Assembly: GCA_035714365.1 (NCBI GenBank)
Contig: DASTMB010000037.1
Location: 159,647-223,646 of the forward strand
Source of the DNA: Mycobacteriales bacterium
Lineage (GTDB): Bacteria > Actinomycetota > Actinomycetes > BP-191
Direction of reading: 5' to 3'
Length of the DNA: 64,000 nt
In this document: piece by piece, positions 2,228 to 46,808 of the stretch
Numbering within the stretch: the first letter of the stretch is position 1
Layout of the letters: the number at the start of each line of letters is the position of its first letter
Translations under genes and position numbers: made by a program
The notes under the pieces: model-generated
Database searches by the model: none
What the model saw: only the letters and a program-made list of their open reading frames with translations
What the model was told of the DNA's origin: nothing

Positions 2228-3459
2228 CCGGCCGGCTGCCGTGGCAACTCGCCAGCACCGCCCAGCTCGCCGCCGCCCACCCGTGCCCCAGCGGCGGCGG
2301 CCCCGACGTGCCGGGCGCGCTGATCGGCGTCGACCAGCACGGGGCGCCGTTCTGCTTCGACGCGTTCGCCCTCTACGCGGCGCGGCGGTTGACGAACCCG
2401 AACATGCTCGTCGTCGGGGAGATCGGCGCCGGGAAGTCGGCGCTGGTCAAGACGCTGCTGTGGCGGCAGCAGGCGTTCGGGCACGCCGCGTGGGTCGCCG
2501 ACCCGAAAGGCGAGTACGGGCCGCTCGCCGCCGCGTCCGGCGTCACCCCGATCCGCCTCGACCCCGCCGGCGGCGCGCGGCTCAACCCGTTCGACAACGA
2601 CGACCACACCACCCCGGCGCAGCACGGGCCGCTGCTCGCCGCGCTCGCCGCGACCGCGGCCGGGCGGCCGCTGCGCCCCACCGAACACGCCGCCGCCGAC
2701 GTGGCGCTGACCGCCGCCGCCCGCCGCGGCCCGCTCCTGCTCCCCGCCGTCGTCGACGCCCTCCTCGACCCGGCCGAACCCGACGCCGCCGGGCTGCACC
2801 TGAGCGTCGACCGGCTCGCCGACGAAGGCCGCGACGTCGCGCTGGCGCTGCGCCGGCTGTGCCGCGGTGACCTCGCCGGGCTGTTCGACGGACCGACGAC
2901 GGTGCGGCCCCGCCACGACGACCCGCTCGTCGTCCTCGACCTGTCCGCCATCTACCAGCGTGCCCGCGACGCGCTGCCGCTCGCCATGACCTGCGCCACC
3001 GCCTGGTTACAGCACGCCGTCACCGCCGCCACCGCCCCGCACCGCTACGTCGTCCTCGACGAGGCGTGGGCGCTGCTCGCGCATCTGGACACCGCCCGCT
3101 GGCTGCAACAGTCCACGAAACTCGCCCGCGCCCGCGGTGTTGCGCACCTCATCGTGCTGCATCGCCTCTCCGACCTCACCGCCGCCGGCGACGCGCACTC
3201 CGAAACCGTCGCGCTCGCCCGCGGGGTGCTCTCCGACACCGGCGTCCGCGCCCTCTACCACCAGCCGCACAGCGAACTCGCCGCCGCCGCGACGCTGCTC
3301 GGGCTCAGCGACGCCGAAGCGGCGATCCTGCCCCACCTCGACCCCACCATCGGACTCTGGCTCATCGGCGACGCCCACCAGCTCGTCGCGCACCGCCTCG
3401 CCCCCGCCGAGCGGCCCATCGTCGACACCGACGACCGGATGATCGGCGACACCGCGTGA
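2224..3459 (+). CDS. VirB4/TraE-like conjugation ATPase (P-loop NTPase domain)
   Basis: Walker A VVGEIGAGKSALVKT and Walker B YVVLDEAWALL. Start and stop are both translationally coupled to neighbours (2224-2227 and GTGA at 3456-3459). Confidence 0.7.
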   Translation: MTGRLPWQLASTAQLAAAHPCPSGGGPDVPGALIGVDQHGAPFCFDAFALYAARRLTNPNMLVVGEIGAGKSALVKTLLWRQQAFGHAAWVADPKGEYGPLAAASGVTPIRLDPAGGARLNPFDNDDHTTPAQHGPLLAALAATAAGRPLRPTEHAAADVALTAAARRGPLLLPAVVDALLDPAEPDAAGLHLSVDRLADEGRDVALALRRLCRGDLAGLFDGPTTVRPRHDDPLVVLDLSAIYQRARDALPLAMTCATAWLQHAVTAATAPHRYVVLDEAWALLAHLDTARWLQQSTKLARARGVAHLIVLHRLSDLTAAGDAHSETVALARGVLSDTGVRALYHQPHSELAAAATLLGLSDAEAAILPHLDPTIGLWLIGDAHQLVAHRLAPAERPIVDTDDRMIGDTA

Positions 3460-11987: not shown

Positions 11988-12941
11988 ATGGACCGCACCA
12001 AGCAGTGGAGGGTGGCGGACCGGCACCGGGTGGAACTGGTCCGCTACCTGACGGCCCGCACCGGCGCCGCGGACATCGCCGAGGACGCCGCCGCGGAAGC
12101 GATCGCGGCCGCCGGGTCCGCTCATCTCCGCGACGAGCAGCACGCGCAGGCGTGGCTGCGCCGCGTCGGCTGGCATCGCTGCGTGGACGAGTTCCGGCAC
12201 CGCCGCACCCCGGAGTCGCTGTCGCGGGTCGCGGCGCCGTCGTCGACGCCCAGTGCGGAGGAGGTCGCCCTTGAGCATGACCTGGCGGTCCGGGTCCGGG
12301 CCGCGGTGGCGACGTTGCCGCCGCAGCAGCGCGTGGTCGTCACCGCCTACGCGCAGGGTGAGACGGTGCGGGTGATCGCTGCGCGACGGCGGCAGACCGT
12401 GAAGGCGGTGGAAGCGCAGCTCACTCGCGGGCTGGCGCGGGTGCGCGACGCGCTCAACGCGGGGGTCGCCGTGGTGTCGGGTCGGCTGCGGCTTCGCCGC
12501 GCTGCCGCGGTGTCGGCGGCGTCGATGGTCGTCACGGTCAGCGCCGCGCTGTGGCTCGGCGCGACCATCCCGGCGCCGGCCGCCACCTCCGGCGCGGCCG
12601 CCCACCCGGTGCGGTCGGACGCGTCCGGCGCTGTCGTCCGCGTCACCCACCGGGAGCGCACGCCAGCGGCGCGCCCGCAGTCGCCGGCGCCGCCGCACCG
12701 GCGGCCGCACCGCACGCCTGCCGTCCACCGGGCGGGGCACCGCGCGGCGTCGACGCTGCTCGCCCCGCCCGGGGTCACGGGTCCGGCCGGTATCTCGGTC
12801 CAACCGGGCAGCGTGGATCGGGACGGCGGCCGTCTCGGTGACGGGTTCGTCGCCGACGTGCTCGCCTGCATCGGGCATGGCGTGCGGGTCGAGGAGCAGC
12901 GGGTGTCGTGTCGGCCCGACGCCACCGTCTACATGCTGTAG
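11988..12941 (+). CDS. ECF sigma factor with a C-terminal TM helix and extracytoplasmic extension (membrane-tethered sigma/anti-sigma-like fusion)
   Basis: Region 2 (ELVRYLTARTGAADIAEDAAAEA ... AWLRRVGWHRCVDEFRHRR). Region 4 HTH (LPPQQRVVVTAYAQGETVRVIAARRRQTVKAVEAQLTRGLARVRDAL). Hydrophobic helix AAAVSAASMVVTVSAALWLGA, then ~130 aa. RBS GGGGGAGG upstream of the ATG. Confidence 0.65.
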   Translation: MDRTKQWRVADRHRVELVRYLTARTGAADIAEDAAAEAIAAAGSAHLRDEQHAQAWLRRVGWHRCVDEFRHRRTPESLSRVAAPSSTPSAEEVALEHDLAVRVRAAVATLPPQQRVVVTAYAQGETVRVIAARRRQTVKAVEAQLTRGLARVRDALNAGVAVVSGRLRLRRAAAVSAASMVVTVSAALWLGATIPAPAATSGAAAHPVRSDASGAVVRVTHRERTPAARPQSPAPPHRRPHRTPAVHRAGHRAASTLLAPPGVTGPAGISVQPGSVDRDGGRLGDGFVADVLACIGHGVRVEEQRVSCRPDATVYML

Positions 12942-13363
12942 CCGACGACGATGCCTTCGCTGCCGGGCTGCCACTTGAAGATCGCGGAGATCGGCGTCGG
13001 CGGGTCGACGTCGCTGCGGTAGGTGAACAGCACGTCGTAACTTCCGGTGTCGGCGCCGTTCTTCGGCACCGTCCAGCAGACCTGCGCGGTCGGCTGCGTC
13101 GCCGTCGACGTCGTGTAGTTGATCGCGGTGCCGTTGCTGCGCGCGCCGGTGAACTCGATGGTCCACAGCGGCCCGGTCGTGGGCGGGACCCGCAGTTCGC
13201 CGTTGCCGCAGATGGTCTGTCCGCTGGTGGTGAACGACGCGGTGAACCACATGTGCGGCCGTTCCACCTGGGGCAGCGGATCGGTGTCCGCGTGGGCGCC
13301 GTGGGCGGTGAGGAGGGTTCCGGCGGCCGTGGACGCGACGAGCACGACGCGGGCGACGCGCAT
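12929..13363 (-). CDS. Small secreted protein (144 aa), unknown function
   Basis: Signal peptide MRVARVVLVASTAAGTLLTAHGAHA. Immediately downstream of, and co-directional with, the sigma-fusion gene. Confidence 0.5.
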   Translation of the reverse strand: MRVARVVLVASTAAGTLLTAHGAHADTDPLPQVERPHMWFTASFTTSGQTICGNGELRVPPTTGPLWTIEFTGARSNGTAINYTTSTATQPTAQVCWTVPKNGADTGSYDVLFTYRSDVDPPTPISAIFKWQPGSEGIVVGYSM

Positions 13364-13381
13364 GGAGAACCTCCGGACGGG

Positions 13382-14500
13382 TCAGCCTCCCGGCGGCGGG
13401 GGGAGGGGAACATCGTAATGCGGGTCCCCGTCGGTTCGGCACTGTACGGCGTCCTGCTGCTCGGGCACCCACGGGCAGACGGGGGCGACCTCTTCCTGGA
13501 CCTCGAATCCGGGCACCGCGGAGACGCTGAGCACGTCGGCGTTCACCGGTGACGTGGTGCAGGTCGGCTGTCCGTCGATCGGCACGCACGCCCCGACCTC
13601 CCCGTCGGGCAGCGCGCCCGGCAGTCGCGGCAGCCGCACGCCGGTCACGAGCCGGCGGGCCGCTGCTGCCGGTGCCCGGCGCAGCAGCCGGCGCGCGGTG
13701 CGGGTCACCCCCACCGCGTCGCCGGTCGCGACCGCGGCGGCGGCGTCGCCGACACCATCGAGGACCCGGGCGACGGCGCGGGGGACCCGGTGCAGCGAGA
13801 TCGGCACCGGCAGTGGCTGTGTGGCGACGGCGGTCATGAAGACGCCGACCAGCGCCGCGTTCGCCACCGCGACCATCGCCGTCGACACCGCCCCGGGTGC
13901 GGCCGACCGGCGCCGAAGCCGGCCCCGCAGCGCGGCGAGGAACGCGGCGATGAGCCCGCCCCGTTGGCGCACGGCGTGCAGCGCCCGCGTCACCCGTTTC
14001 CGCGTCGCGGCCTCGGTCAGTCCCGTCTCGTCCGCGAGTTGGGAGTACGGCGCGGCGTCCACGTAGCGGCGGCGCAGCAACTCCTGCACCTCGGCGGGCA
14101 GCTCCTCGTAGGCCATGACGACGCGCGTCGCCGCGGTGACCCGCGGGGTCGCCCATAGCGAGACCGCGCCGTCCGGCGGATACGGGACCAGGGCCGGGCG
14201 GCGCCGCGCCCGCCGCCGCGCGTCCGTCGCCGCGTGACGTGCCGCGGTGAACAGCAGCGCGCGCCGGTGGTCGTCGTCAGTCAGCGCCGCCCACGACCGG
14301 TACACCGCGAGGTAGGCGCGCTGCGCCACGTCGTCACACTCGCTGCGATCCACGTACGCCAGTGACGACAGGAAGCGGTAGAGACCCGCGACCGTCTCGG
14401 CGTGGAACTCCTCGAACTCGCGCCCGATCCCCCGCGCGGTCTGACACGCGACCACCGACTGCCCCTTCACGTCCACGCCGCAGGCTGCGGCCACCCGCAC
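13382..14500 (-). CDS. ECF sigma factor fused to a TM helix and a Cys-rich C-terminal domain
   Basis: Region 2 (FEEFHAETVAGLYRFLSSLAYVDRSECDDVAQRAYLAVYRSW). Region 4 (LPAEVQELLRRRYVDAAPYSQLADETGLTEAATRKRVTRALHAVRQR). Hydrophobic segment AVSTAMVAVANAALVGVFMTAV. C-terminal domain with six Cys. Confidence 0.6.
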   Translation of the reverse strand: MRVAAACGVDVKGQSVVACQTARGIGREFEEFHAETVAGLYRFLSSLAYVDRSECDDVAQRAYLAVYRSWAALTDDDHRRALLFTAARHAATDARRRARRRPALVPYPPDGAVSLWATPRVTAATRVVMAYEELPAEVQELLRRRYVDAAPYSQLADETGLTEAATRKRVTRALHAVRQRGGLIAAFLAALRGRLRRRSAAPGAVSTAMVAVANAALVGVFMTAVATQPLPVPISLHRVPRAVARVLDGVGDAAAAVATGDAVGVTRTARRLLRRAPAAAARRLVTGVRLPRLPGALPDGEVGACVPIDGQPTCTTSPVNADVLSVSAVPGFEVQEEVAPVCPWVPEQQDAVQCRTDGDPHYDVPLPPPPGG

Positions 14501-25094: not shown

Positions 25095-28000
25095 CTAGCG
25101 ATCGAGTGGTTCCGGCAGGTCGCGGGCGGTGTCGTCGCGCAGGAGGAGCTGCGCGTGCTCGACGGCGGCGAGTTCCGGGTGCTCTGGGTTGGCTCGGTCG
25201 AGGGGGCCGAGGGGCTGGTCGGGGTCGGTGATGCCGTGGGTGAGGCGGTAGGTCTCGATGGTGTGGGCGGCGTGGCGCCAGATGCCGCGCCGGTAGGGGT
25301 CGTGGGGGCGGGGGCCGAGGGTGGTGGTGAGGTAGCGGGGCGGGTTGTGTTCGATGTTGGTGAGGCGTTGGTGGGCGCGGTGGTTGATTTCGTCGCGGGC
25401 CTGGTCGGCTGCGCGCCGCTCGGGGGCGGTTGCGTGTTCGTGGTGGAGCCGCTGCTGTTCGTGGGCTTCGAGGGCGTGCGCGCGTTGCAGCGCGGCGGTC
25501 TCGCGTTGGGTGGCGTGCTGGACGCGGCGTTGGGCGGCGCGGAGTTGGTGGGCGTGGTCGCGGCGGCGGCGTGGGTGGAGGCGTTGCCGGCGGGGCTGGT
25601 CACGTAGGTGGCCTATGGCCTCGTGGCCGGCGGCGGCGTCGAGCGCGGCGTTGGCGGCGTCGGTGTAGGCGGCGGCGAGTTCGGCGCGCCGGTTGGGGAG
25701 CATGGCGCGCTGGGCGGCGTCGCCGCGGCTGACGGCGGCGCGGAGCTGGTCGTCGGTGGCGTCGGCGAGGGGCCGGTTGTCCTCGTCGATGGGCGTGGCG
25801 GCGCCGGTGGCGTCGCGGTGCTGGTGGAGGGCGTGGCGGGCTTGGTGCCAGTCGTCGTGCCGGGCGGGCGGGTCGGCGCTGGTGGGGGCGGGGCCGAGGG
25901 GGCGGTGGTCGGTGTCGGGGATGTGCCAGCGGTCGCGGTAGGTCTGGATGTGGCCGGCGGCATCGCGCCAGGTGCGGCGGCGGGTGACGTTGTTGGTGGG
26001 TGGGGGGCCGAGGGCGGTGAGGTGGGGGGCGGTTCCGGCGCGGGCGGCGCGTTCGGCGGTGATGCCTTGGCGGCGGAGGTGGTCGCGGTAGGCGGCGTCC
26101 GCGTCGTCCGCCGCGGCCGGGCTGTGGTGGGGGTCGGCGGCGTGGTCGGCGTGGGTGGCGCGCAGGACGGCGGTGGTGTTGTCGCCGGGGCCGCCGTCGT
26201 GGAGGTCGAGGGCGGCGCGTTGGGCGCGGGAGCGGGTCGCGGCGGTGGTGAGCTGGGTGAGCGGCGGCGGGTCGCCGGCGGGTGGGTGGTGTTCGGCGCG
26301 CAGGAGCTGGGTGTCGTGGTCGCGGTCGGGGTTGGTGGCGTAGAGCTGGGTGTGTTGGCGGCCGCGGGAGAGGGTGGTGTAGAGGCTTTCCCGGTAGAGG
26401 GCGTCACCGGCGGCGTCGACGAACACGTGCTCGGCGCTGAGCCCTTGGGCGCGGTGCAGGGTGTGCGCATAGCCGTGGTCGAGGCCGCCGCGGCGCAGGT
26501 AGCGGGCGCTGACCTGGTGGTGGGTGCCGTCGGGGAGGGTGACGGTGAGGGTGCCGGCCTCGGGGTCGACGGTGGTGACGGTGCCGAGGTCGCCGTTGAG
26601 CAGGCCGCTGTTGCGGTAGTCGTTGCGCCGCGCGGCGACGAGGTCCCCGACGGCGAAGCGGCGTTCGCCGAGCGGGCCGGCGGTGACGACGAGGTCGGGG
26701 CCGGTGAGCAGCCCGGCGTCGGTGAGGCGGGCGCGGGCGCGGGTGTTGAGGTCGGCGACGGCGCGGCGGCGGGTGGCGAGCATGACGTGCGCCTCGGGTG
26801 ATTCAGCCAGAATCCGGGCGGCCGGTGTGCCGGTGCTGGTGGCGGTGGTGTGGAGGGCGGTCCACCAGTCGGTGACGAGCTGGTCGCGGGCGGCGTCGAC
26901 GTCGGGTTGCACGGTGACCCGCCCGTGGTCGACGTAGGCGTCGAGGGCGGCGTGGACGACGGGCGGGGCGGCGTCGCGGATGGCGCCCAGCGCGGCCCGT
27001 TCCCAGCCGTGGACTTGGCGCATGTTGCGGGTGAGGGTGACCGGCGCGAGTCGGTGCGCGAGGGCCCGGAACAGCCCCCCGGCGTCGATCTCGGGGAGTT
27101 GCCGGTAGTCACCGACGAGGACGAGCTTCGCCTGGTCCCGCCGCGCGTAACCGTGCAGGGCGGCGAGATCGCGGCTGCCGAGCATCCCGGCCTCGTCGAC
27201 GACGATCACGCTGCCGGGCGGCATCGGCCCGTGCCGTGGGTCGTCGAGCTCGGCGAGGAGGCGGGTGATGGTCCAGGTGGTGATGCCGGTGGCGTCGGTG
27301 AGCCGGGCGGCGGCGCGGGCGGCGACGGCGGCGCCGACGACGTGGTGCCCGCCGGCGGTCCAGGCGTCGTGTACGGCGCCGAGGAGGTGGGTCTTACCGG
27401 CGCCGGCGACGCCGATGACGACCTCGACTCCGGCGCCGCCGGTGAGGAGCCGGACGGCGGCGAGTTGCTGCTCAGGGTTGAGGTGGTGCCGTTCCAGGGT
27501 GGCGCCGAGGACGGCGGCGGGCACGACCCCGAGCCCGTCGTGGGCGCGGTCGGCGGCTTGGGTGATCACGGTCCGTTCGAGGTGGAGGAGGTCGGTGGTG
27601 GTGTAGCGGGTCTCGCCGTGCCCGGGAGGGCGGGTGTCGCCGTGGCGTTCGTCGGGGACTGCGCGCAACGCCACCACGTCGCGGTGCCGGAGGAACGCGG
27701 CGGCGTCCGCCTCGATCGCCTCGATCGGGTCGCCGTCGACGCGCGCGACGCAGAGTGCTTGGACGACGTCGCGGCGGTGGAAGTGCGACGCGGCGGCGGT
27801 GAGCCCAGTCGGGGCGAGCATCGCCGCCTGCTCCTGCGCCCGGTCGACCGGCGCCCGGTGGTGGCGGTGCAGCAGCGCGTAGCGGGTGGGGGCGGTGAAC
27901 CCGAGCTGGTCGGCGCGGGCCTGCCAGTCGGCGGCGAGGCGGTGCTGGTCGTAGGGGTGCTTCCGGCGCCGCGTGTCCAGGGTGGCGACTTGCGCGGCAC

Positions 28001-28766
28001 GCGGCCCGTCGAGGCCGAGTTCGGCGAGGCGGGCCTGGATCTCCTCCGCGCGTTGCGAGAAGGCGCGCAGCACCTCGGCGGGGATGCCCTCGACCTCGGA
28101 CAGGCCGTTGCCGCGCACCGTCCAGGCGAGGCCGAGGTCGCGCACGTTGTGCCGGAGTTGGGAGCGGTAGAGCATCCCCGCGGTCTTGGCTTCCCGGAAC
28201 AGGGCGCGCCCGTCGACGGCGTACCAGCGGCCGTCACTGCCCTGCACGGTGTTCGCGGTGACGACGTGGGTGTGCAGGTGCGGGTCCCCAGCACGGGAGA
28301 CGCGGTGTCGGAACGCCGCGCCGACGAGGCCCCGGCCGGGTTCGACCGTGACCCCGTCCTTGCCGCGCCGGACGTGGCCGGCGTGCCGGTCGAGGTAGCC
28401 GAGCGCGGCGGCGACAGCGTGGTCATGCGCGGCGCGGATCTGCTCCGCGAGTTCGGGCTGCCCCAGCGCGGCGAGGAGGCTCAGCGACTTCGGGGCGTTG
28501 AACGTGAGGTCGTAGCCGCGGACCCGGCCGGCGCGGCGCTGCGCGAGCAGGTCCACGCCGGTGCCGGGCTGGTAGCCATCGAGGAGGGTACGCAGCGGGT
28601 CGGCGGTCACTTCCCCGGTGAGGCCGAGCTGGTGCCGGCCGGCGCCGACCCAGTAGCCGGGCGCCTCCCCGGCGCCGAGGTAGTACGCCTCGGTGGTGCG
28701 CGCCACCTTGTTCAGGTAGTAGTCCTCGCCGCGGCCGCCGGCGCCGAGGACCTGAATGCTCAACAT
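25095..28766 (-). CDS. MobF/TrwC-family relaxase fused to a C-terminal helicase (TraA/TraI-like conjugative relaxase)
   Basis: N-terminal Tyr pairs (EDYYLNK ... EAYYLGAGEAPGYWVGAG). Three-His motif GDPHLHTHVVTANTVQ. Helicase Walker A VVIGVAGAGKTHLLG and Walker B VIVVDEAGML. Long C-terminal region. Confidence 0.85.
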   Translation of the reverse strand: MLSIQVLGAGGRGEDYYLNKVARTTEAYYLGAGEAPGYWVGAGRHQLGLTGEVTADPLRTLLDGYQPGTGVDLLAQRRAGRVRGYDLTFNAPKSLSLLAALGQPELAEQIRAAHDHAVAAALGYLDRHAGHVRRGKDGVTVEPGRGLVGAAFRHRVSRAGDPHLHTHVVTANTVQGSDGRWYAVDGRALFREAKTAGMLYRSQLRHNVRDLGLAWTVRGNGLSEVEGIPAEVLRAFSQRAEEIQARLAELGLDGPRAAQVATLDTRRRKHPYDQHRLAADWQARADQLGFTAPTRYALLHRHHRAPVDRAQEQAAMLAPTGLTAAASHFHRRDVVQALCVARVDGDPIEAIEADAAAFLRHRDVVALRAVPDERHGDTRPPGHGETRYTTTDLLHLERTVITQAADRAHDGLGVVPAAVLGATLERHHLNPEQQLAAVRLLTGGAGVEVVIGVAGAGKTHLLGAVHDAWTAGGHHVVGAAVAARAAARLTDATGITTWTITRLLAELDDPRHGPMPPGSVIVVDEAGMLGSRDLAALHGYARRDQAKLVLVGDYRQLPEIDAGGLFRALAHRLAPVTLTRNMRQVHGWERAALGAIRDAAPPVVHAALDAYVDHGRVTVQPDVDAARDQLVTDWWTALHTTATSTGTPAARILAESPEAHVMLATRRRAVADLNTRARARLTDAGLLTGPDLVVTAGPLGERRFAVGDLVAARRNDYRNSGLLNGDLGTVTTVDPEAGTLTVTLPDGTHHQVSARYLRRGGLDHGYAHTLHRAQGLSAEHVFVDAAGDALYRESLYTTLSRGRQHTQLYATNPDRDHDTQLLRAEHHPPAGDPPPLTQLTTAATRSRAQRAALDLHDGGPGDNTTAVLRATHADHAADPHHSPAAADDADAAYRDHLRRQGITAERAARAGTAPHLTALGPPPTNNVTRRRTWRDAAGHIQTYRDRWHIPDTDHRPLGPAPTSADPPARHDDWHQARHALHQHRDATGAATPIDEDNRPLADATDDQLRAAVSRGDAAQRAMLPNRRAELAAAYTDAANAALDAAAGHEAIGHLRDQPRRQRLHPRRRRDHAHQLRAAQRRVQHATQRETAALQRAHALEAHEQQRLHHEHATAPERRAADQARDEINHRAHQRLTNIEHNPPRYLTTTLGPRPHDPYRRGIWRHAAHTIETYRLTHGITDPDQPLGPLDRANPEHPELAAVEHAQLLLRDDTARDLPEPLDR

Positions 28767-33093: not shown

Positions 33094-36000
33094 ATGAGCG
33101 GGTGGCGTAGGTCTCGGTATGCCGTCGCGGCGGCGCCGGCTCGGCGTCGGTCCGGGCCGGGGTTGCTGGCGTGGCTGCGGCGGCTGCTGCGGGCGCTGCT
33201 GTCGCTGGCTGGGCTCACCGCACTAGCTGGGGGCGTGCCGGTGGCGTTGTGGCGGGTCGCCGGCTGGCCGCTGCCGCACCGGGTACCGGCGTGGGCGGCG
33301 CTGCGCCGGGGCCTGACCGAGCCGGTCGACGACCGGGTGCTGCTCAACGTGATCGTCGTCGTCACGTGGCTGGCGTGGGCGTACCTGCTGGTGACGATCC
33401 TGGTCGAGATCGCCGCCGCGGTGGCGCCGCGCCGAGTTCGCTGGCATGTCCCCGGCCCCGGCGCGGTGATCGCCCGCCGGCTCATCTCGGGACTGCTCGC
33501 CGCGTCCGCGGCGGTGCCGGTGGTGGCGCTGCCCGCATCCGCCGCCGCCCCACCGGCGCGCCCACCCGCCGCGACCAGCGTCCTCAACGCCGCCGCGCCG
33601 ACCGCCGGCCCCTCCACCGGCGCCGCGGCGCGGCCGGACACCTACACCGTCCGCCCCGGGGATACCCTGTGGGGCATCGCCGCCCACGAGCTCGGCCCCA
33701 CCTCGTCACCGGCGCAGGTCGCGGCGCGCTGGCCCCGCTGGTACGCGGCGAACCGCGGCCGCCCCCAACCCGCCGGCGGCGGGGCACTCACCGACCCGAA
33801 CCGGCTACTGCCCGGCTGGCAACTCCGCGACCCCGACACCCCCGCCCCACACCACACGCCGCCGGCGCGGGCGACCCGCCGCCGCACCACACCGCCCCCC
33901 TCCCCGGCCCCGGCCCCGGCGCCGCACCGCCCGGCGGCCCGGCACACCCCGCCACCCGCGGCGCGCCCCGAGCAGCCCTCCACGCCCGCCGACGCGGCAC
34001 CGACGCGGCACTCCGGCCGCCCCGACGACCAGCCAGCGAACCGGTCGGCGATCCCCGCCGCCCTCGTGCCGATCGGCGGCAGCGCCCTGTTCGCCGCCGC
34101 GGTCGTCTCCACCCTCACCCGGGCGCGACGGCGGCGCGGCGCCCCCGCGCTGCCCGCCCCGCAGGCGGCGGCGCGGCTCGAAACCCTGCTCCGGGTCGCC
34201 GCCGAACCCGACGACCTCACCGACCTGCTCCGCGCCCTCGACCTCCTCGCCGCCCGCCTCGCCGACACCACCATCGACGTGCCACCGATCCTCGGCGCCC
34301 GGCTGCGCCCCACCGCCGTCGACCTACTCCTCGCCGCCACCCGCACCGACGCACCCGCACCGTTCCGCCCCCTCGACGGCGGGCGCGTCTGGACCGTCCG
34401 CCGCACTCAGCTCCCCGCCGTCCGCGACGACGCCACCCCCTGCCCACTACCCACGCTCGTGCCCGTCGGCCGCGACACGGACGGGCTCGTGCTGCTCCAC
34501 CTCGAACACGCCGGCGCCGTCGCGGTCACCGGCACCCCCGACGCGCGGCGACGCCTGCTCACCAGCATCGCCGCCGAACTCGCCGTCGCCCCCTGGCCCA
34601 CCTGGGTCGACGTCACCACCCTCGGCCTACCCCGCGACCTCACCCGCCTCGACCCCGAACGCCTCCACCCCGCCACCACCCTCGACGAGCCGACGCTGCG
34701 CACCCTCACCGCCGCCGACACCCCCACCAGCACCGACCCGGAGGCGCCGGCCGCCGCCCGTATCCGCGCCCCCTGGCAGGACCGCCCCGCGCCCCGCGTC
34801 CTCCTCGCCGCCACCCCACTACCCGAAGCCGCCCTCGCCGCGCTCGGCGAGCACGCCACCCGACCCGGCTCCACCCTCACCGCCCTGACCGCCGGCGAAT
34901 GGCCGCACGCCCGCTGGACGTTCCACATCGACGACGACGGCACCCTCACCGTCCCCGAACTCGGCCTGCGGCTCCACGCCGTCACCGTCACCACCACCCG
35001 GCTCCCGCAACTCGCCGAACTCCTCGAGAACGCCCGCGCCGCCACCACCGACGACGACGACGAGGACCCGCGCGCACCCGCCGCGGCCACCAGCACCCCC
35101 GCCGACGACGCCGGGCAGGCGCCGCCCGACCCGGCCGCAGTCGACCCGGACCCGCAGCCCGCGCCGCCGCAGACCAGCCCCGCCGATTCAGCCCGAATCG
35201 ACGCGAACCCCACCCCCGCCGCCACCACGACCGCGGCCCCCGCCGCCACGGTCACCGACCCGACCCCCGCCGCCGGCCACGCGGTCGACGGCACCGCCGC
35301 GTTGGCCCTCGCGGACCCGGGCGACGACCTCGACCGCGCCGTCGCCGCCTACCTCACCGCCGCGCCCGGCACCGTCCAAGTCCGCGGCTTCGCCGGCCCC
35401 GCCGTCACCGCCCCCGGCACCATCGAATCCCGCCGCGTCGCCACCCTCACCGAACTCGTACTCCTCCTCGCCGCCAACCCCACCGGCCTCTACCCCACCG
35501 ACATCGCCGCCGCCCTATGGCCCGACCGCACCGTCAGCTCCCAAACCATCAGCGCCACCCTCTGCCGCGCCCGCGGCTGGCTCGGCACCGCCACCGACGG
35601 CACCCCACACCTCCCCCCGGCCGGCGCCGGACGAGTCCGTCTCTCCCCCACCGTCCTCGTCGACTGGCAGCTATTCACCGCCCTGGTCGACCGCGCCCGC
35701 CGCCACCCCGACCGGGCACCCGCCGACCTCACCACCGCCCTGCACCTCATCAACGGCGGGTTCCTCACCGACCGCCCCGACGGCCGCTACCACTGGCTCA
35801 CCGACACCGACCTCGAACACACCCTCCCCGCCGCCGTCCTCGACGCCGCGCACCAACTCGCCCGCCACCACCTCGACACCGGCAACCCCGCCGCCGCCCG
35901 CGATACAGCCCGAATCGCGCACCGCGTCGACGACTGCGACGAACGCCCCTGGCGCGACCTCATGGAAGCCGAAGCCGCCCTCGGCCACCCCCAGCGCGTC

Positions 36001-36117
36001 GCCCAACTCCGCGACCAACTCATCCGCCACCTCGACTACGAAGTCGAAGAAGACCTCACCCCTGAAACCGTCCAACTCCTCGACCGGCTCCTCCCACGCG
36101 GGCAGGCCGGCGCGTAG
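33094..36117 (+). CDS. Large membrane protein with a LysM domain and a C-terminal BTAD (SARP-like bacterial transcriptional activator) domain
   Basis: RBS GGGGGAA before the ATG. TM helices near the N-terminus (LLNVIVVVTWLAWAYLLVTILVEIAAAV). LysM (YTVRPGDTLWGIAAHELG). Pro-rich linker. C-terminus resembles AfsR/DnrI-type BTAD helices (WQLFTALVDRARRHP ... LHLINGGFL ... RDLMEAEAALGHPQRVAQLRDQL). Confidence 0.65.
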   Translation: MSGWRRSRYAVAAAPARRRSGPGLLAWLRRLLRALLSLAGLTALAGGVPVALWRVAGWPLPHRVPAWAALRRGLTEPVDDRVLLNVIVVVTWLAWAYLLVTILVEIAAAVAPRRVRWHVPGPGAVIARRLISGLLAASAAVPVVALPASAAAPPARPPAATSVLNAAAPTAGPSTGAAARPDTYTVRPGDTLWGIAAHELGPTSSPAQVAARWPRWYAANRGRPQPAGGGALTDPNRLLPGWQLRDPDTPAPHHTPPARATRRRTTPPPSPAPAPAPHRPAARHTPPPAARPEQPSTPADAAPTRHSGRPDDQPANRSAIPAALVPIGGSALFAAAVVSTLTRARRRRGAPALPAPQAAARLETLLRVAAEPDDLTDLLRALDLLAARLADTTIDVPPILGARLRPTAVDLLLAATRTDAPAPFRPLDGGRVWTVRRTQLPAVRDDATPCPLPTLVPVGRDTDGLVLLHLEHAGAVAVTGTPDARRRLLTSIAAELAVAPWPTWVDVTTLGLPRDLTRLDPERLHPATTLDEPTLRTLTAADTPTSTDPEAPAAARIRAPWQDRPAPRVLLAATPLPEAALAALGEHATRPGSTLTALTAGEWPHARWTFHIDDDGTLTVPELGLRLHAVTVTTTRLPQLAELLENARAATTDDDDEDPRAPAAATSTPADDAGQAPPDPAAVDPDPQPAPPQTSPADSARIDANPTPAATTTAAPAATVTDPTPAAGHAVDGTAALALADPGDDLDRAVAAYLTAAPGTVQVRGFAGPAVTAPGTIESRRVATLTELVLLLAANPTGLYPTDIAAALWPDRTVSSQTISATLCRARGWLGTATDGTPHLPPAGAGRVRLSPTVLVDWQLFTALVDRARRHPDRAPADLTTALHLINGGFLTDRPDGRYHWLTDTDLEHTLPAAVLDAAHQLARHHLDTGNPAAARDTARIAHRVDDCDERPWRDLMEAEAALGHPQRVAQLRDQLIRHLDYEVEEDLTPETVQLLDRLLPRGQAGA

Positions 36118-36219
36118 CGCGCAGAACACGGCTGCCAGGCTGTGGGCGCGCGCTGACGCGTTCGTGCAAACCCGCTGGTTCGGATGGAGTGTGGTGTTAG
36201 GCCGCGCGGTGAGATCCAA

Positions 36220-36255
36220 CATATCGGTACGCGGTGACGCGCGACCGCCGATATG
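36220..36255. promoter_or_regulatory. Inverted repeat CATATCGG-N20-CCGATATG in the lower-GC leader of the DUF3800 gene
   Basis: 8-bp arms; lies about 60 nt upstream of the TTG start at 36315. Confidence 0.35.
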
Positions 36256-36314
36256 TCCGATATTCCTGCAATACTCTGCGGTTCTGGCGCAGTAATTAGG
36301 AACTGAGGAGACCG

Positions 36315-36899
36315 TTGCCGAGCCCCCCCGAAGAGGAGGTTTCCGCCTACGTCGATGAGTCGTTATCCTTCGAGGGCGGTGGCTGGTACCTCCTTGCAGC
36401 AGCCATTGTTAGCAAGTCAGATAAACACGAAGTTCGCCAAAGGCTGCATGATCTTCTGCTCCCGGGACAGCGCCGTCTCCACTGGCGCGACGAGAACGAC
36501 AGCCGCCGCGTGGATTTAGCGAAGGGAATCGCGGAGCTGCCTGTGACGAAGTTGGCAGTCGCCTGTCGTCACGTCACCCGTGACACGCAAGAGCGCGCGC
36601 GGCATCAGTGCCTTACCCGACTCCTGTGGGAGCTCGATCGTCGGCATGTCGCCCACCTCGTGTGCGAAAGTCGACAGACGCGTCTTGATGCCGGTGACCT
36701 CTCCGTTGTTCGAGGTGTCCGGCGGACAGGAGGGATATCACCTCTCCTTCGCGTCTCCTTTTGCGCCGCGCCTGACGAATCCCTCTTATGGATCGCAGAC
36801 ATTCTCGCCGGAGTAATAAGCAGATCGCTTCGGGACAAGGCGGCGCAGCCCGGCCTCGGGTTCACGCCCGTGCGAGAAATGATTTGGCTGCACGACTGA
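36315..36899 (+). CDS. DUF3800-family protein (paralog 1)
   Basis: N-terminal YVDESLSFEGGGWYLLAAAIV and C-terminal LLWIADILAGV, matching the DUF3800 YxDESG ... QxADLxA pattern. GAGGAG RBS. Lies in a locally lower-GC segment. Confidence 0.6.
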   Translation: MPSPPEEEVSAYVDESLSFEGGGWYLLAAAIVSKSDKHEVRQRLHDLLLPGQRRLHWRDENDSRRVDLAKGIAELPVTKLAVACRHVTRDTQERARHQCLTRLLWELDRRHVAHLVCESRQTRLDAGDLSVVRGVRRTGGISPLLRVSFCAAPDESLLWIADILAGVISRSLRDKAAQPGLGFTPVREMIWLHD

Positions 36900-37213
36900 T
36901 GCTCAAACAGCGCGAAGGCCGGGGTCCCGTCGTCCGGCGGGCATACCCGGCCCCACTTCTGGAACCCTCGTGAGTCCCAGCACACGGATTGTGCCTCGAA
37001 CGGTTGGGTTCGTCAACGCATGATGGCTCCACGGATGCGCGAAGCACTGGTGGTGGTGGCGCGGGTGAACCTTCCGCGCACTCGGGGGTTAGCCGCCGAG
37101 CACATGCATGTGCTCGGCGGCCGGGTAGTCAACGCACGAATAGGTGCCGCGCGGGCGCGCGAGGCAACCATTCGGGTAAGTCGGCGCGTGTGTCGTCTTG
37201 TAGAGGAGGAACG

Positions 37214-37441
37214 ATGCCAAGCGCGGGTGACGACACCTTTGACGATGATCGGATCATCGCGCTACTCAAGGACTCGGTACCAACAGCGCCCGTTGCTATC
37301 GATCCAGTAGCCGTCAGAGATCTAGCCCAGCAGACGGAGTCGGGCAGCGACGGCTTCAGTAGCCACCGTCTCCTTCCGGAGCGAAGGCGTTACTGGCACG
37401 CAGCGGGCTGTGCGTTACCGCGCTCGCCGCGATGCCACTGA
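37214..37441 (+). CDS. Small hypothetical protein (75 aa)
   Basis: Strong RBS GAGGAGG 6 nt before the ATG, in the lower-GC segment. No recognisable domain. Confidence 0.3.
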   Translation: MPSAGDDTFDDDRIIALLKDSVPTAPVAIDPVAVRDLAQQTESGSDGFSSHRLLPERRRYWHAAGCALPRSPRCH

Positions 37442-37769
37442 ACCGGCGCACGATCAGCGGGGACGCGGTTGAGCGGCCTGGACGGCGCCATGCGGCCGCC
37501 TATGCTCTAGGCGCCGTCACCAAGACGCCACAACGGAGTCGCGTTCAGGAGCTGGCGCTGGGCCTGGGTCGCGGGAGACGAGCCCGTCGCGCGTTTCACC
37601 CGCAAAATCTGGTGCTGTCACCGACAGCACGTAGCCGGATGAAGCCGATATACTGCTGAGCAAGACGGAGGTCCCTGAGCACGGAACATCGGGGCAACGC
37701 CGTTTCGGCAGGTCAGAGCGGTGCCTCGATCGGTTTCGATTCCCGTCACCCGCTCCAGCCCGGGCCGTG

Positions 37770-38312
37770 TCAGCAGGCGCGCGAGCCCGCCACCGTGACC
37801 GTCCGGCAGCCGAGATACTCCGAGTCGCTGCTCGTGCTCGCGCCCGCGAACACGAAGATGAACACCAGCCCCATGATCACGATGTTCGCCCAGGCGATGA
37901 CCCGGGCGGCGGTGACGAACCCGCTGCCGCTCAGCCGGCCCTGCGAGGCGCGGATCGACCGCGACGCCTGGCCGGCGAGCACCAGCGCGACGATGGCCGG
38001 GATGACCGGGCAGACGACCCAGGCGACGAGCGACGTGACGAACGCGCCGATCGCCTTGCCGTCCGTCTGCGGCGGGCCGTAGCCGTACCCGTAGCCGGGC
38101 GGCGCGTACGGCGGCGGCGTGCCGTAGCCGGCGTAGCCGGGGTACTGGCCGTACCCGGGCTGCTGGCCGTACCCGGGCTGCGCGCCGTACCCGGGCTGCG
38201 CGCCGTAGTCGCCCGGCGGCGGGCCGGGCGGCTGCGCGCCGGGGCCCGGGGTCCAGCCGGAGGGCGGGAGGCCCCAGCCGGGCGCGTTCGGGTCGTTGCC
38301 GCTGTCGGTCAC
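37770..38312 (-). CDS. DUF4190-family membrane protein with a Pro/Gly/Tyr-rich N-terminal region
   Basis: PGYG repeats, then GKAIGAFVTSLVAWVVCPVIPAIVALVLAGQASRSI and a second hydrophobic helix. Confidence 0.6.
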   Translation of the reverse strand: MTDSGNDPNAPGWGLPPSGWTPGPGAQPPGPPPGDYGAQPGYGAQPGYGQQPGYGQYPGYAGYGTPPPYAPPGYGYGYGPPQTDGKAIGAFVTSLVAWVVCPVIPAIVALVLAGQASRSIRASQGRLSGSGFVTAARVIAWANIVIMGLVFIFVFAGASTSSDSEYLGCRTVTVAGSRAC

Positions 38313-43005: not shown

Positions 43006-44043
43006 ATGCGGGCCGCCTACCTGCCCGGGGGACGGGTCGTCGACCTGCGGGAGATCGAGGTCCCGGTACCGGGGCCGGGCGAGCTGCTGCTGCGGATGGG
43101 CGCGTCCACCATCTGCGGCTCCGACCTGCGGGCGATCTACCGGGAGCACCTGGGCCACGGCGCGGAGGCGTACCAGGGCGTCGTCGGCGGGCACGAGCCG
43201 TGCGGCGAGGTGGTGGAGGCGGGGCCTGGCGTCACGGCGTTCGGGCCGGGCGACCGGGTCGTCGTCTACCACATCGCCGGCTGCGGCTCCTGCGCCGACT
43301 GCATGGACGGCTACGACATCTCCTGCCAGTCGCCGGAGCGGAAGGCGTACGGCTGGCAGCGCGACGGCGGCCACGCCGACTTCATCCTCGCGGACGAGCG
43401 GTCGCTGGTCCGGCTGCCGGAGGAGCTGTCGTTCCTCGACGGCGCCAGCGTCGCGTGCAGCGTCGGCACGGCGTACGAGGCGCTCTGCCGGATCGGCGTC
43501 TCCGGCCGCGACGCGCTGCTCGTCACCGGCCTCGGCCCGGTCGGGCTGGCCGCCGGGCTGCTCGGCAAGGCGATGGGCGCGACGACGGTGATCGGTGTCG
43601 ACCCCGCGCCCGAACGCCGCGCGCTCGCGGTGGGGACCGGCGCCGTGGACGAGGCGGTGCCCGCGGACGCGAACGCCGCCGCCGAGGTGCGCCGGCTCAC
43701 CGGCGGGCACGGCTGCGAGACGGCCGTCGATTGCTCCGGCGCGGCGTCCGGCCGGCTCACCGCGGTGGACGGCGCGCGGCGCTGGGGACGGGTGGCGTTC
43801 GTCGGGGAGGGCGGCCGGGTCGACCTCGACGTCAGCCAGCAGCTCATCCACCGCAACCTCACCGTGCTCGGGTCCTGGGTGACCAGCCGGTGGCGCACCG
43901 CCGAGCTGCTGGAACGGCTCGTAAGGTGGGGGCTGCACCCCGAGGTGCTGGTGACCCATCGGTTCCCGCTCGAGCAGGTGGCGGAGGCGTACGCAGTGGC
44001 CGACAGCGGCGTGGCGGGCAAGGTCGCGGTGGTCGGGAGGTGA
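43006..44043 (+). CDS. Zinc-dependent alcohol dehydrogenase (MDR family)
   Basis: [21 protein letters not shown] structural-zinc motif, and Rossmann fold [10 protein letters not shown]. Real start is an internal ATG of the longer track ORF. Confidence 0.85.
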
Positions 44044-46808
44044 GCGCTCCGCTCGCCTTCGACGAGTACGGCGTCGCGTCGCTCGACGGTGTCTGGGCGT
44101 TCACGCCCGAGGGCGGCGAGCCCACCACCATCGAGGTCCCGGGGCTGTGGGAGGCGCAGGGGCACCTGGAGCTCGACGGCGCCGCCGAGTACTGCCGCCG
44201 CTTCGCGCTCGCCGACACGGCCGGCTACTGGACCCTGACGTTCGGCGCGGTGATGGACCTGGCCGAGGTCTGGCTCAACGGCACCCGCCTCGGCGAGCAC
44301 GACAGCGCGTTCACGCCGTTCTCGTTCGACGTCTCGGGGCTGCTGCGCGACGACAACGAGCTGCGCGTGCGCGTCTACGACCCGTCGCTGGCGGAGCCGG
44401 AGCACATCCGGCTGCCGCACGGGAAGCAGGGCTGGGCGAACAACCACTTCCCCAGCCGGCCGAGCCTCTACATGACGTACGGCGGCATCTGGCAGTCGGT
44501 GACGCTGCGCCGGCACGGGCCGCTCGTCGTGGACGACGTGTTCGTCAACGCCGACCCGGACGACCTGCGGGTGCGCGTCGAGGTGACCAACCGCGGCGCC
44601 GAGCCGGTCGCCGCGCGGCTCGGCGTGCGCGCCGTCGCGCGGGTGCGGATCGAGGACGTGACGGTGGCGCCGGGCGCGACAGAGGTCGTGGAGGCCGCAT
44701 TCGGCGCGACCGACGCGAAGCGCTGGTCGCCCGCCGCGCCGAACCTCTACACCGCGCTGGTCGACGTGCTGGTCGGCGGCGAGCAGAGCGACACGGCGCG
44801 GGTGCGGTTCGGGCTGCGGACGCTGCGGCTCGACGGCCCGACGCTGCTCATCGACGGCGAGCCGTACCGGATGAAGTCGGTGCTCGTGCAGGGGTTCACC
44901 GCGGACCGGCTCTACGCCGAGGGCACCCGCGAGGAGGTCGAGCGCGAGGTGCGCGCGGCGCGGGACATGGGGTTCAACACGCTGCGCCTGCACATCAAGG
45001 CGTTCGACCCGGTCTACCTCGACGTCTGCGACGAGCTCGGCATGCTGCTCGAGTGCGACCTGCCGGTCGCCGAGCCGATCGACCACGACGACATGGGTGC
45101 CGACACCGAGACGGCGCGCGCCTGCCTGCGCGCGATCCGCGAGCAGGTCCGCCGCGACCGCAACCACCCGTCGGTGATCCTCTGGGCCGCGATGAACGAG
45201 CTGACGCTCGACCGCGAGGGCGCCCACTACTGGGACAGCTACGAGGAGTTCGCGAAGACGCTCTACGACGCCGTGGTCGAGCTGGACCCGACCCGGCCGT
45301 GCATCGAGAACGAGTGGGTCGAGCCGGAGCCGGAACGCGTCTTCCGCTCGCCGATCCTCACCGCCCACTGGTACGGCCGGCTGCACGCCGAGTACCTCGC
45401 CAAGCTCGAACGCGAGTCCGCGCGCTACCGCGACGTCGGGATGCCGCTCTACGTCACCGAGTACGGCGACTGGGGCCTGCCGCAGATGCCGCTGCTGCCG
45501 GACGCGCCGTTCTGGGACACCCACGACATCTACGCGACCGGGCTCGCGGCGTCGTTGTGGCCGTCGACGGTGGCGCGGTTCGTGACCGAGACGCAGCGGT
45601 ACCAGGGGCTGTCCGACCGGCTGCAGACCGAGGTGTTCCGCCGGCACGACCACATCGGCGGCTACTGCCTCACCGAGCTGACCGACGTGCCGCACGAGCT
45701 GAACGGCGTGCTCGACCTGCACCGCAACCCGAAGCCGCTCGCGGTGGCCGAGGTCGTGCGGATGAACCAGACCGTGCTGCCGATGCTGGAGCTGGAGTCG
45801 CTGGTACACACGGCCGGGACGCTGCTCTCCGCGCCGTTGCACGTGAGCAACGACGGCCCGGCGCTGGCCGACGTGACGGTCGAGGTGCGCTTCGGCGACA
45901 CCGCCGCGTCGCTGTCGCCGGAGGAGCTGGCCGGGCTGGACGCGAGCGAGCTGAACGAGGCGAAGGCGCTGGCGCGCTTCGACGAGTCGTCGTGGGGCAC
46001 GCGGATCCCGGTGCTCGACGCGTACCGCGCCGCGCCGCACGGCGAGGTCGTCATCGCGGTGCCCGAGGTGCCGGGCAGCCACGACCTGGTGCTGCGGCTG
46101 TCGGCCGGCGGCGTTCCGGTCGCCGAGAACCGCTACCCGATCCACGTCGTGCGGCCGCCGGACGCGGCGTACGCCGTGCGGGTCGTCGGCGAGCGGCGGA
46201 CCGCGGAGGCGCTGTCGCTCGTCGGCGCGACGGTCGGCGACGACGGCCCGACGTTCGTCGCCGAGTACGGCCTGACGCCGGACCTCACCGCCGACCTCGC
46301 CGAGCGGCTGGCCCGCGGCGAGACGGTGGTGGTGCTGGCGCAGCGCGCCGAGGCCGGGCCGCACTACCCGGTGCCCGCCGAGATCGTCGACGTCGAGACG
46401 GTGTGGGGCTCGACGGTGTTCCACTTCACGACCGACGAGGGGTCGCTGCCGTCGCTGCCGCGCCGCGCCGTCCTCGTCGCCGAGGACTCCACGATCCAGG
46501 CCACGGCGATCGTCGTGCGGCTCGGCGGCGAGGCGTGGCCGGACGTGCCGGAGGTCATCGCGTACAAGCCCGCGCCGAACGCCGTCACCGGCCGCATCGT
46601 CGGCTCGCACCGGGTCGGCGCGGGGCGGCTGGTCGTCTGCCAGTACCGGCTGGTCGGGCCGGCGCTGCGCGGCGACGCGGCCGCGCTCGCCGTGCTGTCC
46701 GACCTGGTGCGCTGGGCCGCCGACCCGCCGCCGCGGCTGACCCGCGACCGGCTGGTGAAGGACGACGGCCGGACCGTGACGTTCTACTCGTGGGAGCCCG
46801 TCGCATGA
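44040..46808 (+). CDS. Glycoside hydrolase family 2 (beta-galactosidase/beta-mannosidase-like)
   Basis: GTG start overlaps the ADH stop (GTGA). [22 protein letters not shown] sugar-binding domain. [13 protein letters not shown] acid/base region. TEYG nucleophile region. Confidence 0.8.

Follow-up and report, generated by a model that had tools for sequence, protein, structure and literature searches.

This study concerns a 64,000-nucleotide stretch of an uncultured Mycobacteriales genome (assembly GCA_035714365.1, contig DASTMB010000037.1, positions 159,647 to 223,646 of the forward strand), hereafter the window, and in particular a 1.6-kb islet of lower G+C (GC) content that ends in a 26-nucleotide sequence resembling the 3' end of a transfer RNA (tRNA). 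We identify this 26-mer, by sequence comparison, as attR of an integrative and conjugative element (ICE) of the type IV secretion system (T4SS) type, about 43.9 kb long and integrated in the 3' end of a tRNA-Gly(CCC) gene; the ICE is new and its type of boundary is ordinary. The islet is the attR-proximal end of this ICE and lies inside it, with an accessory module and the P arm of attP. The module pairs a DUF3800-like gene, whose protein has a predicted fold like that of ribonuclease (RNase) HII/H2, with a covarying structured RNA element that follows the stop codon and matches no catalogued model. Taken as a whole, this explanation, in which the 26-mer is the attR of a tRNA-Gly ICE and the islet is the tip of the element with a DUF3800/RNA module, is in our judgement very probable.

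The tRNA-Gly(CCC) att pair

The source contig (L001; ENA ERZ27253090 k141_421683, 237 kb) includes 10 kb to the left of the window, and a position in L001 equals the window position plus 9183. The features that define the element, given in window coordinates unless L001 is named, are as follows.

37731-37755, plus strand: attR core, in which the 3' end of tRNA-Gly(CCC) is repeated, T-loop to discriminator
L001 2931-3002, plus strand: intact tRNA-Gly(CCC), located 6.2 kb outside the left window edge on this contig and oriented like the fragment
L001 3095-4345: tyrosine integrase (int), starting 93 nt after the tRNA; PF00589; phrog_1, E 4.5e-61
L001, after the integrase: excisionase-type helix-turn-helix (HTH) protein, HTH_17; TIGR01764, 40.5 bits against a cut-off of 28.8
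1-37755, unstranded: ICE body within the window, running on 6.2 kb past the left window edge to attL
2224-3459: VirB4-like AAA_10 ATPase; Pfam, 28.7 bits against a cut-off of 27.5
3456-5120: coupling protein (T4CP); T4SS-DNA_transf, E 1.8e-37
25095-28766, minus strand: TrwC relaxase-helicase; Pfam, E 1.2e-83
33163-36117: LysM/BTAD protein of 984 aa (LysM motif; BTAD domain at the C terminus); last gene of the ICE backbone
37612-37630, unstranded: two inverted GACAGCAC copies, P arm, ~105-125 nt left of the attR core
L001 3063-3081: two direct GACAGCAC copies, P' arm, after the attL core and before the start codon of int
37770-38312, minus strand: DUF4190 membrane protein, first chromosomal gene right of the element

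The initial annotation had read 37732-37757 as a T-arm, acceptor stem and CCA lacking a matching 5' half, and had suggested that an ICE integrated at a tRNA 3' end might have left such a duplicated fragment at one junction, with its integrase beyond the left window edge. The 26-mer is present in a single copy in the window, where no match is expected by chance, and its resemblance to one particular tRNA 3' end is genuine. The description of its structure needs revision: identity with the tRNA is confined to 37731-37755 (25 nt with one mismatch, 21 of them, 37735-37755, exact), the GGT that opens the 26-mer provides no proper 5' strand of a T-stem, and the CA at 37756-37757 is the end of the original chromosomal CCA. 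There is indeed no tRNA 5' half at 37732-37757, and neither ARAGORN nor Rfam calls a tRNA there. Elsewhere in the window, a 79-nt tRNA-Arg(GCG) that ARAGORN called at 46056-46134 was rejected as a false call; it falls in the coding sequence of a glycoside hydrolase family 2 gene (922 aa, 44040-46808).

The remaining parts of that suggestion were borne out by L001, where an intact tRNA-Gly(CCC) that shares this 3' end is followed after 93 nt by the tyrosine integrase. The last 21 bases of this tRNA, TTCGATTCCCGTCACCCGCTC (L001 2982-3002), are identical to window positions 37735-37755, and the tRNA-derived core has only two copies in the window and L001 together (73 kb), even when up to 3 mismatches are allowed. 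Beyond the repeat, the attL copy continues into TGATGG, which is element DNA toward int, and the attR copy into CAGCCC. Direct repeats of a tRNA 3' end with these flanks are what one expects once an integrase has recombined attP with a tRNA gene at its 3' end. Measured between the last bases of the attL and attR cores, the element is 43,936 bp long, and the first chromosomal gene has its stop codon 14 nt from the orphan fragment at attR. An encoded CCA is kept by the orphan copy only; the rebuilt tRNA at attL has none.

We located relatives of the locus through homologues of the STAS-sigma factor encoded to the right of the element and the contigs that encode them. On the chromosome to the right of the first DUF4190 gene there follow a second DUF4190 gene, the gene for this STAS-SigB-type sigma factor, galK and other galactose-metabolism genes, and to the left of the tRNA, L001 carries in order a Fer4/CCG oxidoreductase gene, a 187-aa open reading frame (ORF) and dcd. 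The empty-site comparison proposed by the initial annotation could be made with a Frankiaceae metagenome-assembled genome (MAG; GCA_035556555.1) and two metagenome contigs (L170-L172), in which the sigma factor is 64% identical and an intact tRNA-Gly(CCC) is present without the element. The order in these contigs is galK, STAS-sigma, two DUF4190 genes, a 139-aa ORF, tRNA-Gly(CCC), an MFS gene, a 137-aa ORF and Fer4/CCG. The Frankiaceae tRNA is identical in sequence to the tRNA here, 21-mer included, and both flanks of the element border this single tRNA, lying ~2.4 kb apart as against ~46 kb here. At the level of gene blocks, the tRNA-Gly(CCC) between these flanks in the Frankiaceae MAG is, on this comparison, the unoccupied site. 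A scan of genome contigs with the STAS-sigma factor gave only SigB paralogues of Streptomyces and Kitasatospora (~52% identity over the sigma domains) and no orthologous locus. The arrangement of the window recurs, with an identical islet, in a second sample (JGI 3300034009).

The anatomy of attP can be predicted from the two arms. We counted 5 GACAGCAC sites in the window and 4 in L001 (the two scans overlap by ~12 kb), of which 4 would come to lie within ~400 bp as attP forms; the copies near the att cores are candidate arm-type integrase sites. In this reading the integrase recombined attP of the element with the tRNA-Gly(CCC) gene of the chromosome at its 3' end; the tRNA was rebuilt at attL from its chromosomal 5' part and a 3' end supplied by the element, and the displaced chromosomal 3' end, which encodes the CCA, became the 21-25-nt orphan at attR. 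Excision would proceed through the integrase and the HTH_17 excisionase and would rejoin the sequence from 37731 leftwards to the int-proximal arm, which would bring the four GACAGCAC sites together as arm sites. The predicted attP after excision reads ...GGTGCCTCGATCGGT-TTCGATTCCCGTCACCCGCTC-TGATGGACACCGTGTCC..., and the predicted restored attB ...GCTTGCAACGCGGG-TTCGATTCCCGTCACCCGCTC-CAGCCCGGGCCGTGTCAG....

The DUF3800-like gene and its 3' RNA element

The islet begins directly after the last backbone gene and carries the following main features.

36120-37731, unstranded: lower-GC islet, GC 0.632 against 0.737 (1-36117) and 0.745 (37760-64000)
36315-36899, plus strand: DUF3800-like gene, 194 aa, TTG start, ribosome-binding site (RBS) GAGGAG at 36305-36310
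36901-37013, plus strand: conserved structured element of ~110 nt, directly after the stop codon of the DUF3800-like gene; covariance model 84 bits, E ~1e-18, sole match in the window
36917-36923 / 36946-36952: P1 (7 bp)
36927-36930 / 36937-36940: P2 (4 bp), with loop UCGUCCGG
36953-36960: conserved CCACUUCU, 3' of P1

From the letters alone the initial annotation had described a drop in base composition over about 1.6 kb, AT-rich strings, a DUF3800 gene with an inverted repeat in its leader, and a small ORF with an RBS, and all of these were found again. The 500-bp windows over 36001-38000 have GC contents of 0.616, 0.628, 0.656 and 0.682, with 0.746 and 0.770 in the adjacent windows, and 0.616 is the lowest of all 128 such windows in this stretch of ~74% GC. 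The AT-rich strings lie at 36218-36231 and 36271-36311. The annotation had also cast DUF3800 as a family frequent in defence or abortive-infection contexts. This colouring goes beyond the evidence: the protein has no match in PADLOC-DB 2.0 (0 families at E <=0.1), nor in PHROG or NCBIfam, and the links of DUF3800 to type VII retrons and to accessory proteins of Cas12a2/a3 in the literature are associations (PMC7736814, PMC10910872, PMC13594972).

The match of the protein to PF12686 is borderline (21.3 bits against a cut-off of 21.0, E 4.7e-4), and its motifs, its fold and the PGAP names of its homologues lend support to an assignment to DUF3800. The Pfam model is reached by 8 of 32 members of the clade (E <=0.01), and 40 homologues of ~189 aa, at most 48% identical, are almost all without Pfam annotation, so that the clade is largely invisible to annotation-based surveys. 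The gene callers of ENA and JGI also left the ORF at 36315-36899 uncalled (L165 and L166, gap 12755-13727). Invariant in the alignment are D14-E15 (AYVDES), H56, E60 (HWRDE), R65, R96 and D162, and the Q of the C-terminal QxxD is replaced in the clade (LLW[LI][PA]D). An AlphaFold2 model of the protein has a predicted local distance difference test (pLDDT) score of 91.3, and its top Foldseek matches in the PDB are RNase HII of archaea and RNase H2A of human and mouse (E 4e-6 to 1e-4, probability 1.00, template modelling (TM) score 0.5-0.58; structures 3p83, 2dff, 3puf and 1eke). The modelled protein thus has an RNase HII/H2-like fold. The homologues are stand-alone proteins of ~190 aa encoded by single genes in unrelated chromosomal neighbourhoods, and no reverse transcriptase, CRISPR array, Cas gene or tetratricopeptide repeat (TPR) domain was found near the homologues examined.

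The RNA element was first seen when the DNA after the stop codons of three homologues was compared. A metagenome scan with the family alignment added 80 loci, most of which also carry it. Its layout is AGCGCGAA, P1, P2 with loop UCGUCCGG, the 3' strand of P1, CNCACUUCC, a hairpin P3 of variable sequence and a loosely conserved AGUnUAC. In a 48-sequence alignment, 99.2% of the P1 and P2 cells are paired, and 8 of the 11 pairs change on both sides (51 cells), values that none of 500 shuffles reached; when the partner columns are slid, pairing falls to 26-59%. An extension of P1, AAG/CUU, has two positions that can always pair and a third that pairs in 29 of the 48 sequences. A U-G pair is retained in 44 of the 48, and A-to-G changes beside P1 still pair with U, both of which fit an RNA rather than a DNA structure. 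A covariance model built from this alignment found the element in 71 of 84 sources, with every match on the strand of the gene; eight loci with sufficient downstream DNA lack it. By these comparisons, a covarying structured element is coupled to the DUF3800-like gene family. We infer that gene and RNA element are co-transcribed and that the element has a function, in a specific partnership with the protein.

Rfam contains two of the known DUF3800-associated motifs, DUF3800-I and DUF3800-IX. No family of Rfam 15 matches the element at E <=10 with a 161-nt query, and no DUF3800-* family matches at E <=10 in the region of the window, in 16 element-bearing loci or with a 161-nt query; Rfam scans of the islet, of 19 element-bearing loci and of two 161-nt windows gave chance-level matches only.

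Readings of the module and of the boundary

Outside the seed alignment, the element directly follows a homologous gene in phage Gaia (gp134, 50.8 bits), in plasmid pCM1 (43 bits) and in Nonomuraea gerenzanensis (94 bits). In mycobacteriophage Gaia, gp134 and its element (L178 2510-3150) stand among HNH endonuclease genes, and in the Clavibacter plasmid pCM1 (L180 2492-3172) the DUF3800 gene and the stop codon of a serine recombinase gene overlap. Homologues are present on 92 actinobacterial plasmids (of Clavibacter, Mycobacterium, Rhodococcus, Arthrobacter and others), some of them named 'DUF3800 domain-containing protein' by PGAP. Nonomuraea sp. NN258 carries two tandem DUF3800-like paralogues (L002 8001-9408) with near-identical leaders, each with its own element (8589-8706 and 9255-9372). 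On one metagenome contig (L064 491-1347), a convergent tRNA-Gly(CCC) gene lies no more than 60 nt beyond gene and element, so that the module there adjoins the 3' end of the same tRNA species that is the target of the ICE here.

We also sought copies of the element without the gene, by a pattern scan of IMG/VR and by blastn of GenBank phages. The element is present in the large Streptomyces phages Kela, JustBecause, Kradal, EhyElimayoE, Quantum and Frankenweenie, none of which has a DUF3800-like gene with it. Two GenBank phages that were scored with the model gave 58.9 and 78 bits, and three IMG/VR contigs gave 62-80 bits.

Kela L177 4007-4116 (MT310898.1 ~116660-116770): gene-less element
Frankenweenie L179 2996-3104: gene-less element
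L174-L176: gene-less elements

In these phages the element lies on the transcribed strand of a ~200-nt intergenic region after a small hypothetical gene, in the DnaB helicase-primase interval of the replication module. No DUF3800-like gene was detectable near the phage copies. Kela gp184 and gp186 were considered as DUF3800-like relatives and rejected (no Pfam match, hhalign probability 0.2).

On this basis we propose how the islet might work. It would have been acquired from a donor of lower GC content and would hold a self-contained two-part module, a DUF3800-like nuclease with the RNase H2 fold co-transcribed with a structured 3' RNA, alongside the orphan small ORF and the P arm. The RNA may be the specific partner of the nuclease, bound or processed by it, and might serve as its regulator or antidote, and the pair could give the element a stabilising or anti-phage function. 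More boldly, protein and 3' RNA could form an unrecognised RNA-protein module of actinobacterial mobile elements, by analogy akin to type III toxin-antitoxin or abortive-infection systems in that the RNA restrains the nuclease, with the gene-less copies in Kela-like Streptomyces phages as viral mimics that disarm it. At a minimum, the RNA would on this proposal be a twelfth DUF3800-associated class, structurally unrelated to the catalogued ones. We put this bolder proposal forward tentatively and think it unlikely to hold as stated.

Several observations pull away from the explanation that we prefer, in its boundary part as well as in its module part. The empty site comes from one family-level relative whose flanks match at the level of blocks only (dcd is absent and the 139-aa ORF is added), and two closer relatives (L168 and L169, sigma factor 73% and 68% identical) have no tRNA near the DUF4190/sigma block. 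The GACAGCAC octamer has no overall enrichment, and its reading as an arm site is based on clustering alone. Excision and the attP circle are predictions from sequence. The PADLOC search of the protein was empty, hairpin P3, found in most sequences, has only moderate support (mean z -1.06), and the RNA is not strictly bound to the gene, as its lone copies in Streptomyces phages demonstrate. Finally, the action proposed for the nuclease-RNA module is a hypothesis built on sequence comparison and a predicted fold.

The first alternative is that the 3' element is a plain terminator or mRNA-stabilising hairpin with no specific relation to the protein. Its place directly after the stop codon on the strand of the gene would suit such a role, as would a 3' part that is a hairpin of variable sequence, and several of the described DUF3800-associated motifs precede terminators (PMC5737381). 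Against this, the unpaired AGCGCGAA, UCGUCCGG and CACUUCC show conservation in different orders of Actinomycetota and beside proteins sharing only 30-48% identity, neither a U-tract nor a terminator-like site was found at the element, and the same element occurs in a phage intergenic region after an unrelated gene. We consider this reading unlikely.

A second alternative would make gene and 3' element a selfish mobile or homing unit, in which the element marks an end or a DNA target and the gene-less phage copies are vacant sites or what is left of such units. DDE transposases also have an RNase H fold, the gene stands alone in unrelated neighbourhoods, the tandem Nonomuraea paralogues each have an element, and the Gaia and pCM1 copies, among HNH endonuclease genes and overlapping a recombinase stop codon, respectively, would also suit such a unit. 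However, no conserved sequence or constant inverted repeat was found upstream of the DUF3800-like genes, and without a conserved upstream counterpart the unit is not two-ended, which makes a mobile element of that kind unlikely. The compensatory changes, the retained U-G pair and the A-to-G changes that still pair with U point to selection on an RNA fold, and the nearest structures are RNase HII/H2 rather than transposases. On balance a homing unit seems to us quite improbable.

As to the extent of the ICE, the islet, or its right part at 37006-37731, might instead be left over from a second integrative element that accreted at this tRNA in tandem, in the manner of a cis-mobilizable element (CIME). 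In favour of this, GC content falls sharply after the last backbone gene. The closest relative found for the BTAD/LysM protein, 64% identical, is encoded by another T4SS-type ICE (L173 10001-12928), in which different cargo, a trypsin-like protease and an SLFN/AlbA_2 protein, follows this gene. There is also a 14/15-nt direct repeat, GTGCCTCGA(A/T)CGGTT, at 36991-37005, in the 3' part of the RNA-element match, and at 37721-37735, abutting the attR core. About one such repeat is expected by chance in 1.9 kb by our estimate, and the repeat may be chance or a trace of a rearrangement of the P arm. Tandem accretion is further contradicted by the count of core copies, which remains two even with 3 mismatches and leaves no internal att site, and by the GACAGCAC pair left of attR, which matches the pair beside the ICE's own int. 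We give it very little credence and read the islet as part of a single ICE.

Alternatively, the tRNA-like fragment might owe nothing to integration and be a pseudo-tRNA in decay or a resemblance by chance; the missing 5' half and the silence of ARAGORN and Rfam might have lent colour to this reading. The attL/attR pair refutes it: 21 bases are identical to those of a genuine tRNA 43.9 kb upstream, where the chance expectation is 0, and an integrase and a complete set of conjugation genes lie in between. Its probability is practically nil.

The rest of the element and comparison with known systems

The islet contains three smaller features, and the ICE body a set of near-palindromic dyads.

36214-36227 / 36248-36261: inverted repeat in the leader of the DUF3800-like gene, 14-nt arms that are 86% complementary, with a perfect 9-bp core ACATATCGG/CCGATATGT and a 20-nt spacer
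37092-37121: perfect 30-bp palindrome GCCGCCGAGCACATG/CATGTGCTCGGCGGC, lying after the RNA element and before the small ORF, with direct GTCAACGCA repeats on both sides (37012-37020 and 37128-37136)
37214-37441, plus strand: orphan putative ORF of 75 codons, with a strong RBS, GAGGAGG, at 37203-37209
Window 5125, 6200, 11849, 16981, 19839, 22379 (minus strand), 29132 and 31987; L001 4449 and 6647 (minus strand): GATTCAGCGCGAATC copies

The leader repeat is not conserved upstream of homologous genes and is thus specific to the locus at 36214-36261; it could be an operator or a terminator of the upstream gene. The 30-bp palindrome is similarly a possible terminator or operator. The 75-codon ORF matches nothing in Pfam, NCBIfam, PHROG or PADLOC (0 PADLOC families at E <=0.1), and a phmmer search against 1.84 billion representatives gave 2 matches and no credible relatives; both matches were rejected as repeats in long repetitive proteins with unrelated Pfam domains (an Ig-like surface domain and EccE).

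In the body of the ICE, the ORFs of 1-36117 have further Pfam matches to SSB, ParB, ArdC, several sigma factors and HTH regulators, and L001 encodes, downstream of HTH_17, WhiB, an SLT lytic transglycosylase and a TrbL-like protein (TrbL_3). The initial annotation had remarked that no GATTCAGCG dyads occur right of the boundary, and this is correct: GATTCAGCG occurs 8 times in the window against 0.36 expected, the last at 31995, and the dyads stop at both ends of the element. The near-palindrome GATTCAGCGCGAATC has 10 copies, mostly intergenic and exclusively between attL and attR, and is absent from 26 kb right of attR and from 3 kb left of attL. It is also enriched in the related ICE on L173, with 3 copies (7257, 10584 on the minus strand, and 18514) against 0.2 expected. 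The GATTCAGCGCGAATC dyads are probably the operator of an ICE-encoded regulator. With the boundary in place, this uncultured Mycobacteriales genome is seen to contain a T4SS-type ICE that is complete at 43.9 kb, and the GATTCAGCGCGAATC dyads can be assigned to it.

Among 275 actinobacterial genomes, Ghinet et al. (2011) described 17 T4SS-type ICEs, in which attR is typically a tRNA 3' end and the cargo is of lower GC content (PMC3218068). The ICE here resembles these elements (PMC3218068; Bordeleau et al. 2012, PMC3429521) in its tRNA-adjacent tyrosine integrase, attR repeat, relaxase, coupling protein, VirB4-like ATPase and lower-GC cargo. Compared with those described it is a new member, from a MAG of an uncultured Mycobacteriales bacterium, and its closest relative, at 64% in the BTAD/LysM protein, differs in the cargo at its end. 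It is unlike the actinomycete integrative and conjugative elements (AICEs) of the pSAM2/SLP1 type, which move double-stranded DNA with a single FtsK-like Tra protein and Rep; the relaxase, T4CP and VirB4/TrbL-like genes set it apart from a pSAM2-type AICE.

The cargo is of a known kind, a DUF3800 gene with an associated structured RNA, and the RNA itself, in the model searches made, matches no catalogued model. Weinberg et al. (2017) reported 11 mutually unrelated RNA motifs beside DUF3800 genes, DUF3800-I to -XI, for which they offered no functional hypothesis (PMC5737381). Like these motifs, which often precede a terminator-like hairpin, the element here is a structured RNA found consistently beside DUF3800 genes. 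The genes that accompany it form an actinobacterial clade that is mostly below the Pfam threshold, and the element is set apart from DUF3800-I to -XI by the Rfam result alone. The interest of the islet lies in the coupling of an uncatalogued RNA to an RNase H2-like gene and in the gene-less phage copies. The pairing recurs, on an ICE, on plasmids and in phage Gaia, in a clade mostly missed by gene callers and by Pfam, and the cultivated Streptomyces phages with a lone RNA offer a genetically tractable setting for the relation between RNA and nuclease and for a possible phage counter-measure.

The DUF3800 proteins of type VII retrons were found by Mestre et al. to match 3puf and 1eke, with a DE motif and with the Q of QxxD lost (PMC7736814). 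The protein here resembles these and the TPR-DUF3800 proteins of Cas12a2/a3 in its RNase H2-like fold, its N-terminal DE, the lost Q of QxxD and its association with a structured nucleic acid. It differs from them as a stand-alone protein of ~190 aa with no reverse transcriptase, CRISPR, Cas or TPR nearby.

With ToxIN the likeness is one of layout only, namely a nuclease gene with an adjacent structured RNA on mobile elements, and copies of the RNA in phages without the nuclease; the phage-encoded pseudo-ToxI RNA is a precedent for an RNA mimic in a phage (PMC3475682). The ToxIN RNA is encoded as a tandem repeat array upstream of its toxin, which does not resemble RNase H, whereas here a single-copy RNA lies downstream of a gene whose product is predicted to have an RNase H2-like fold.

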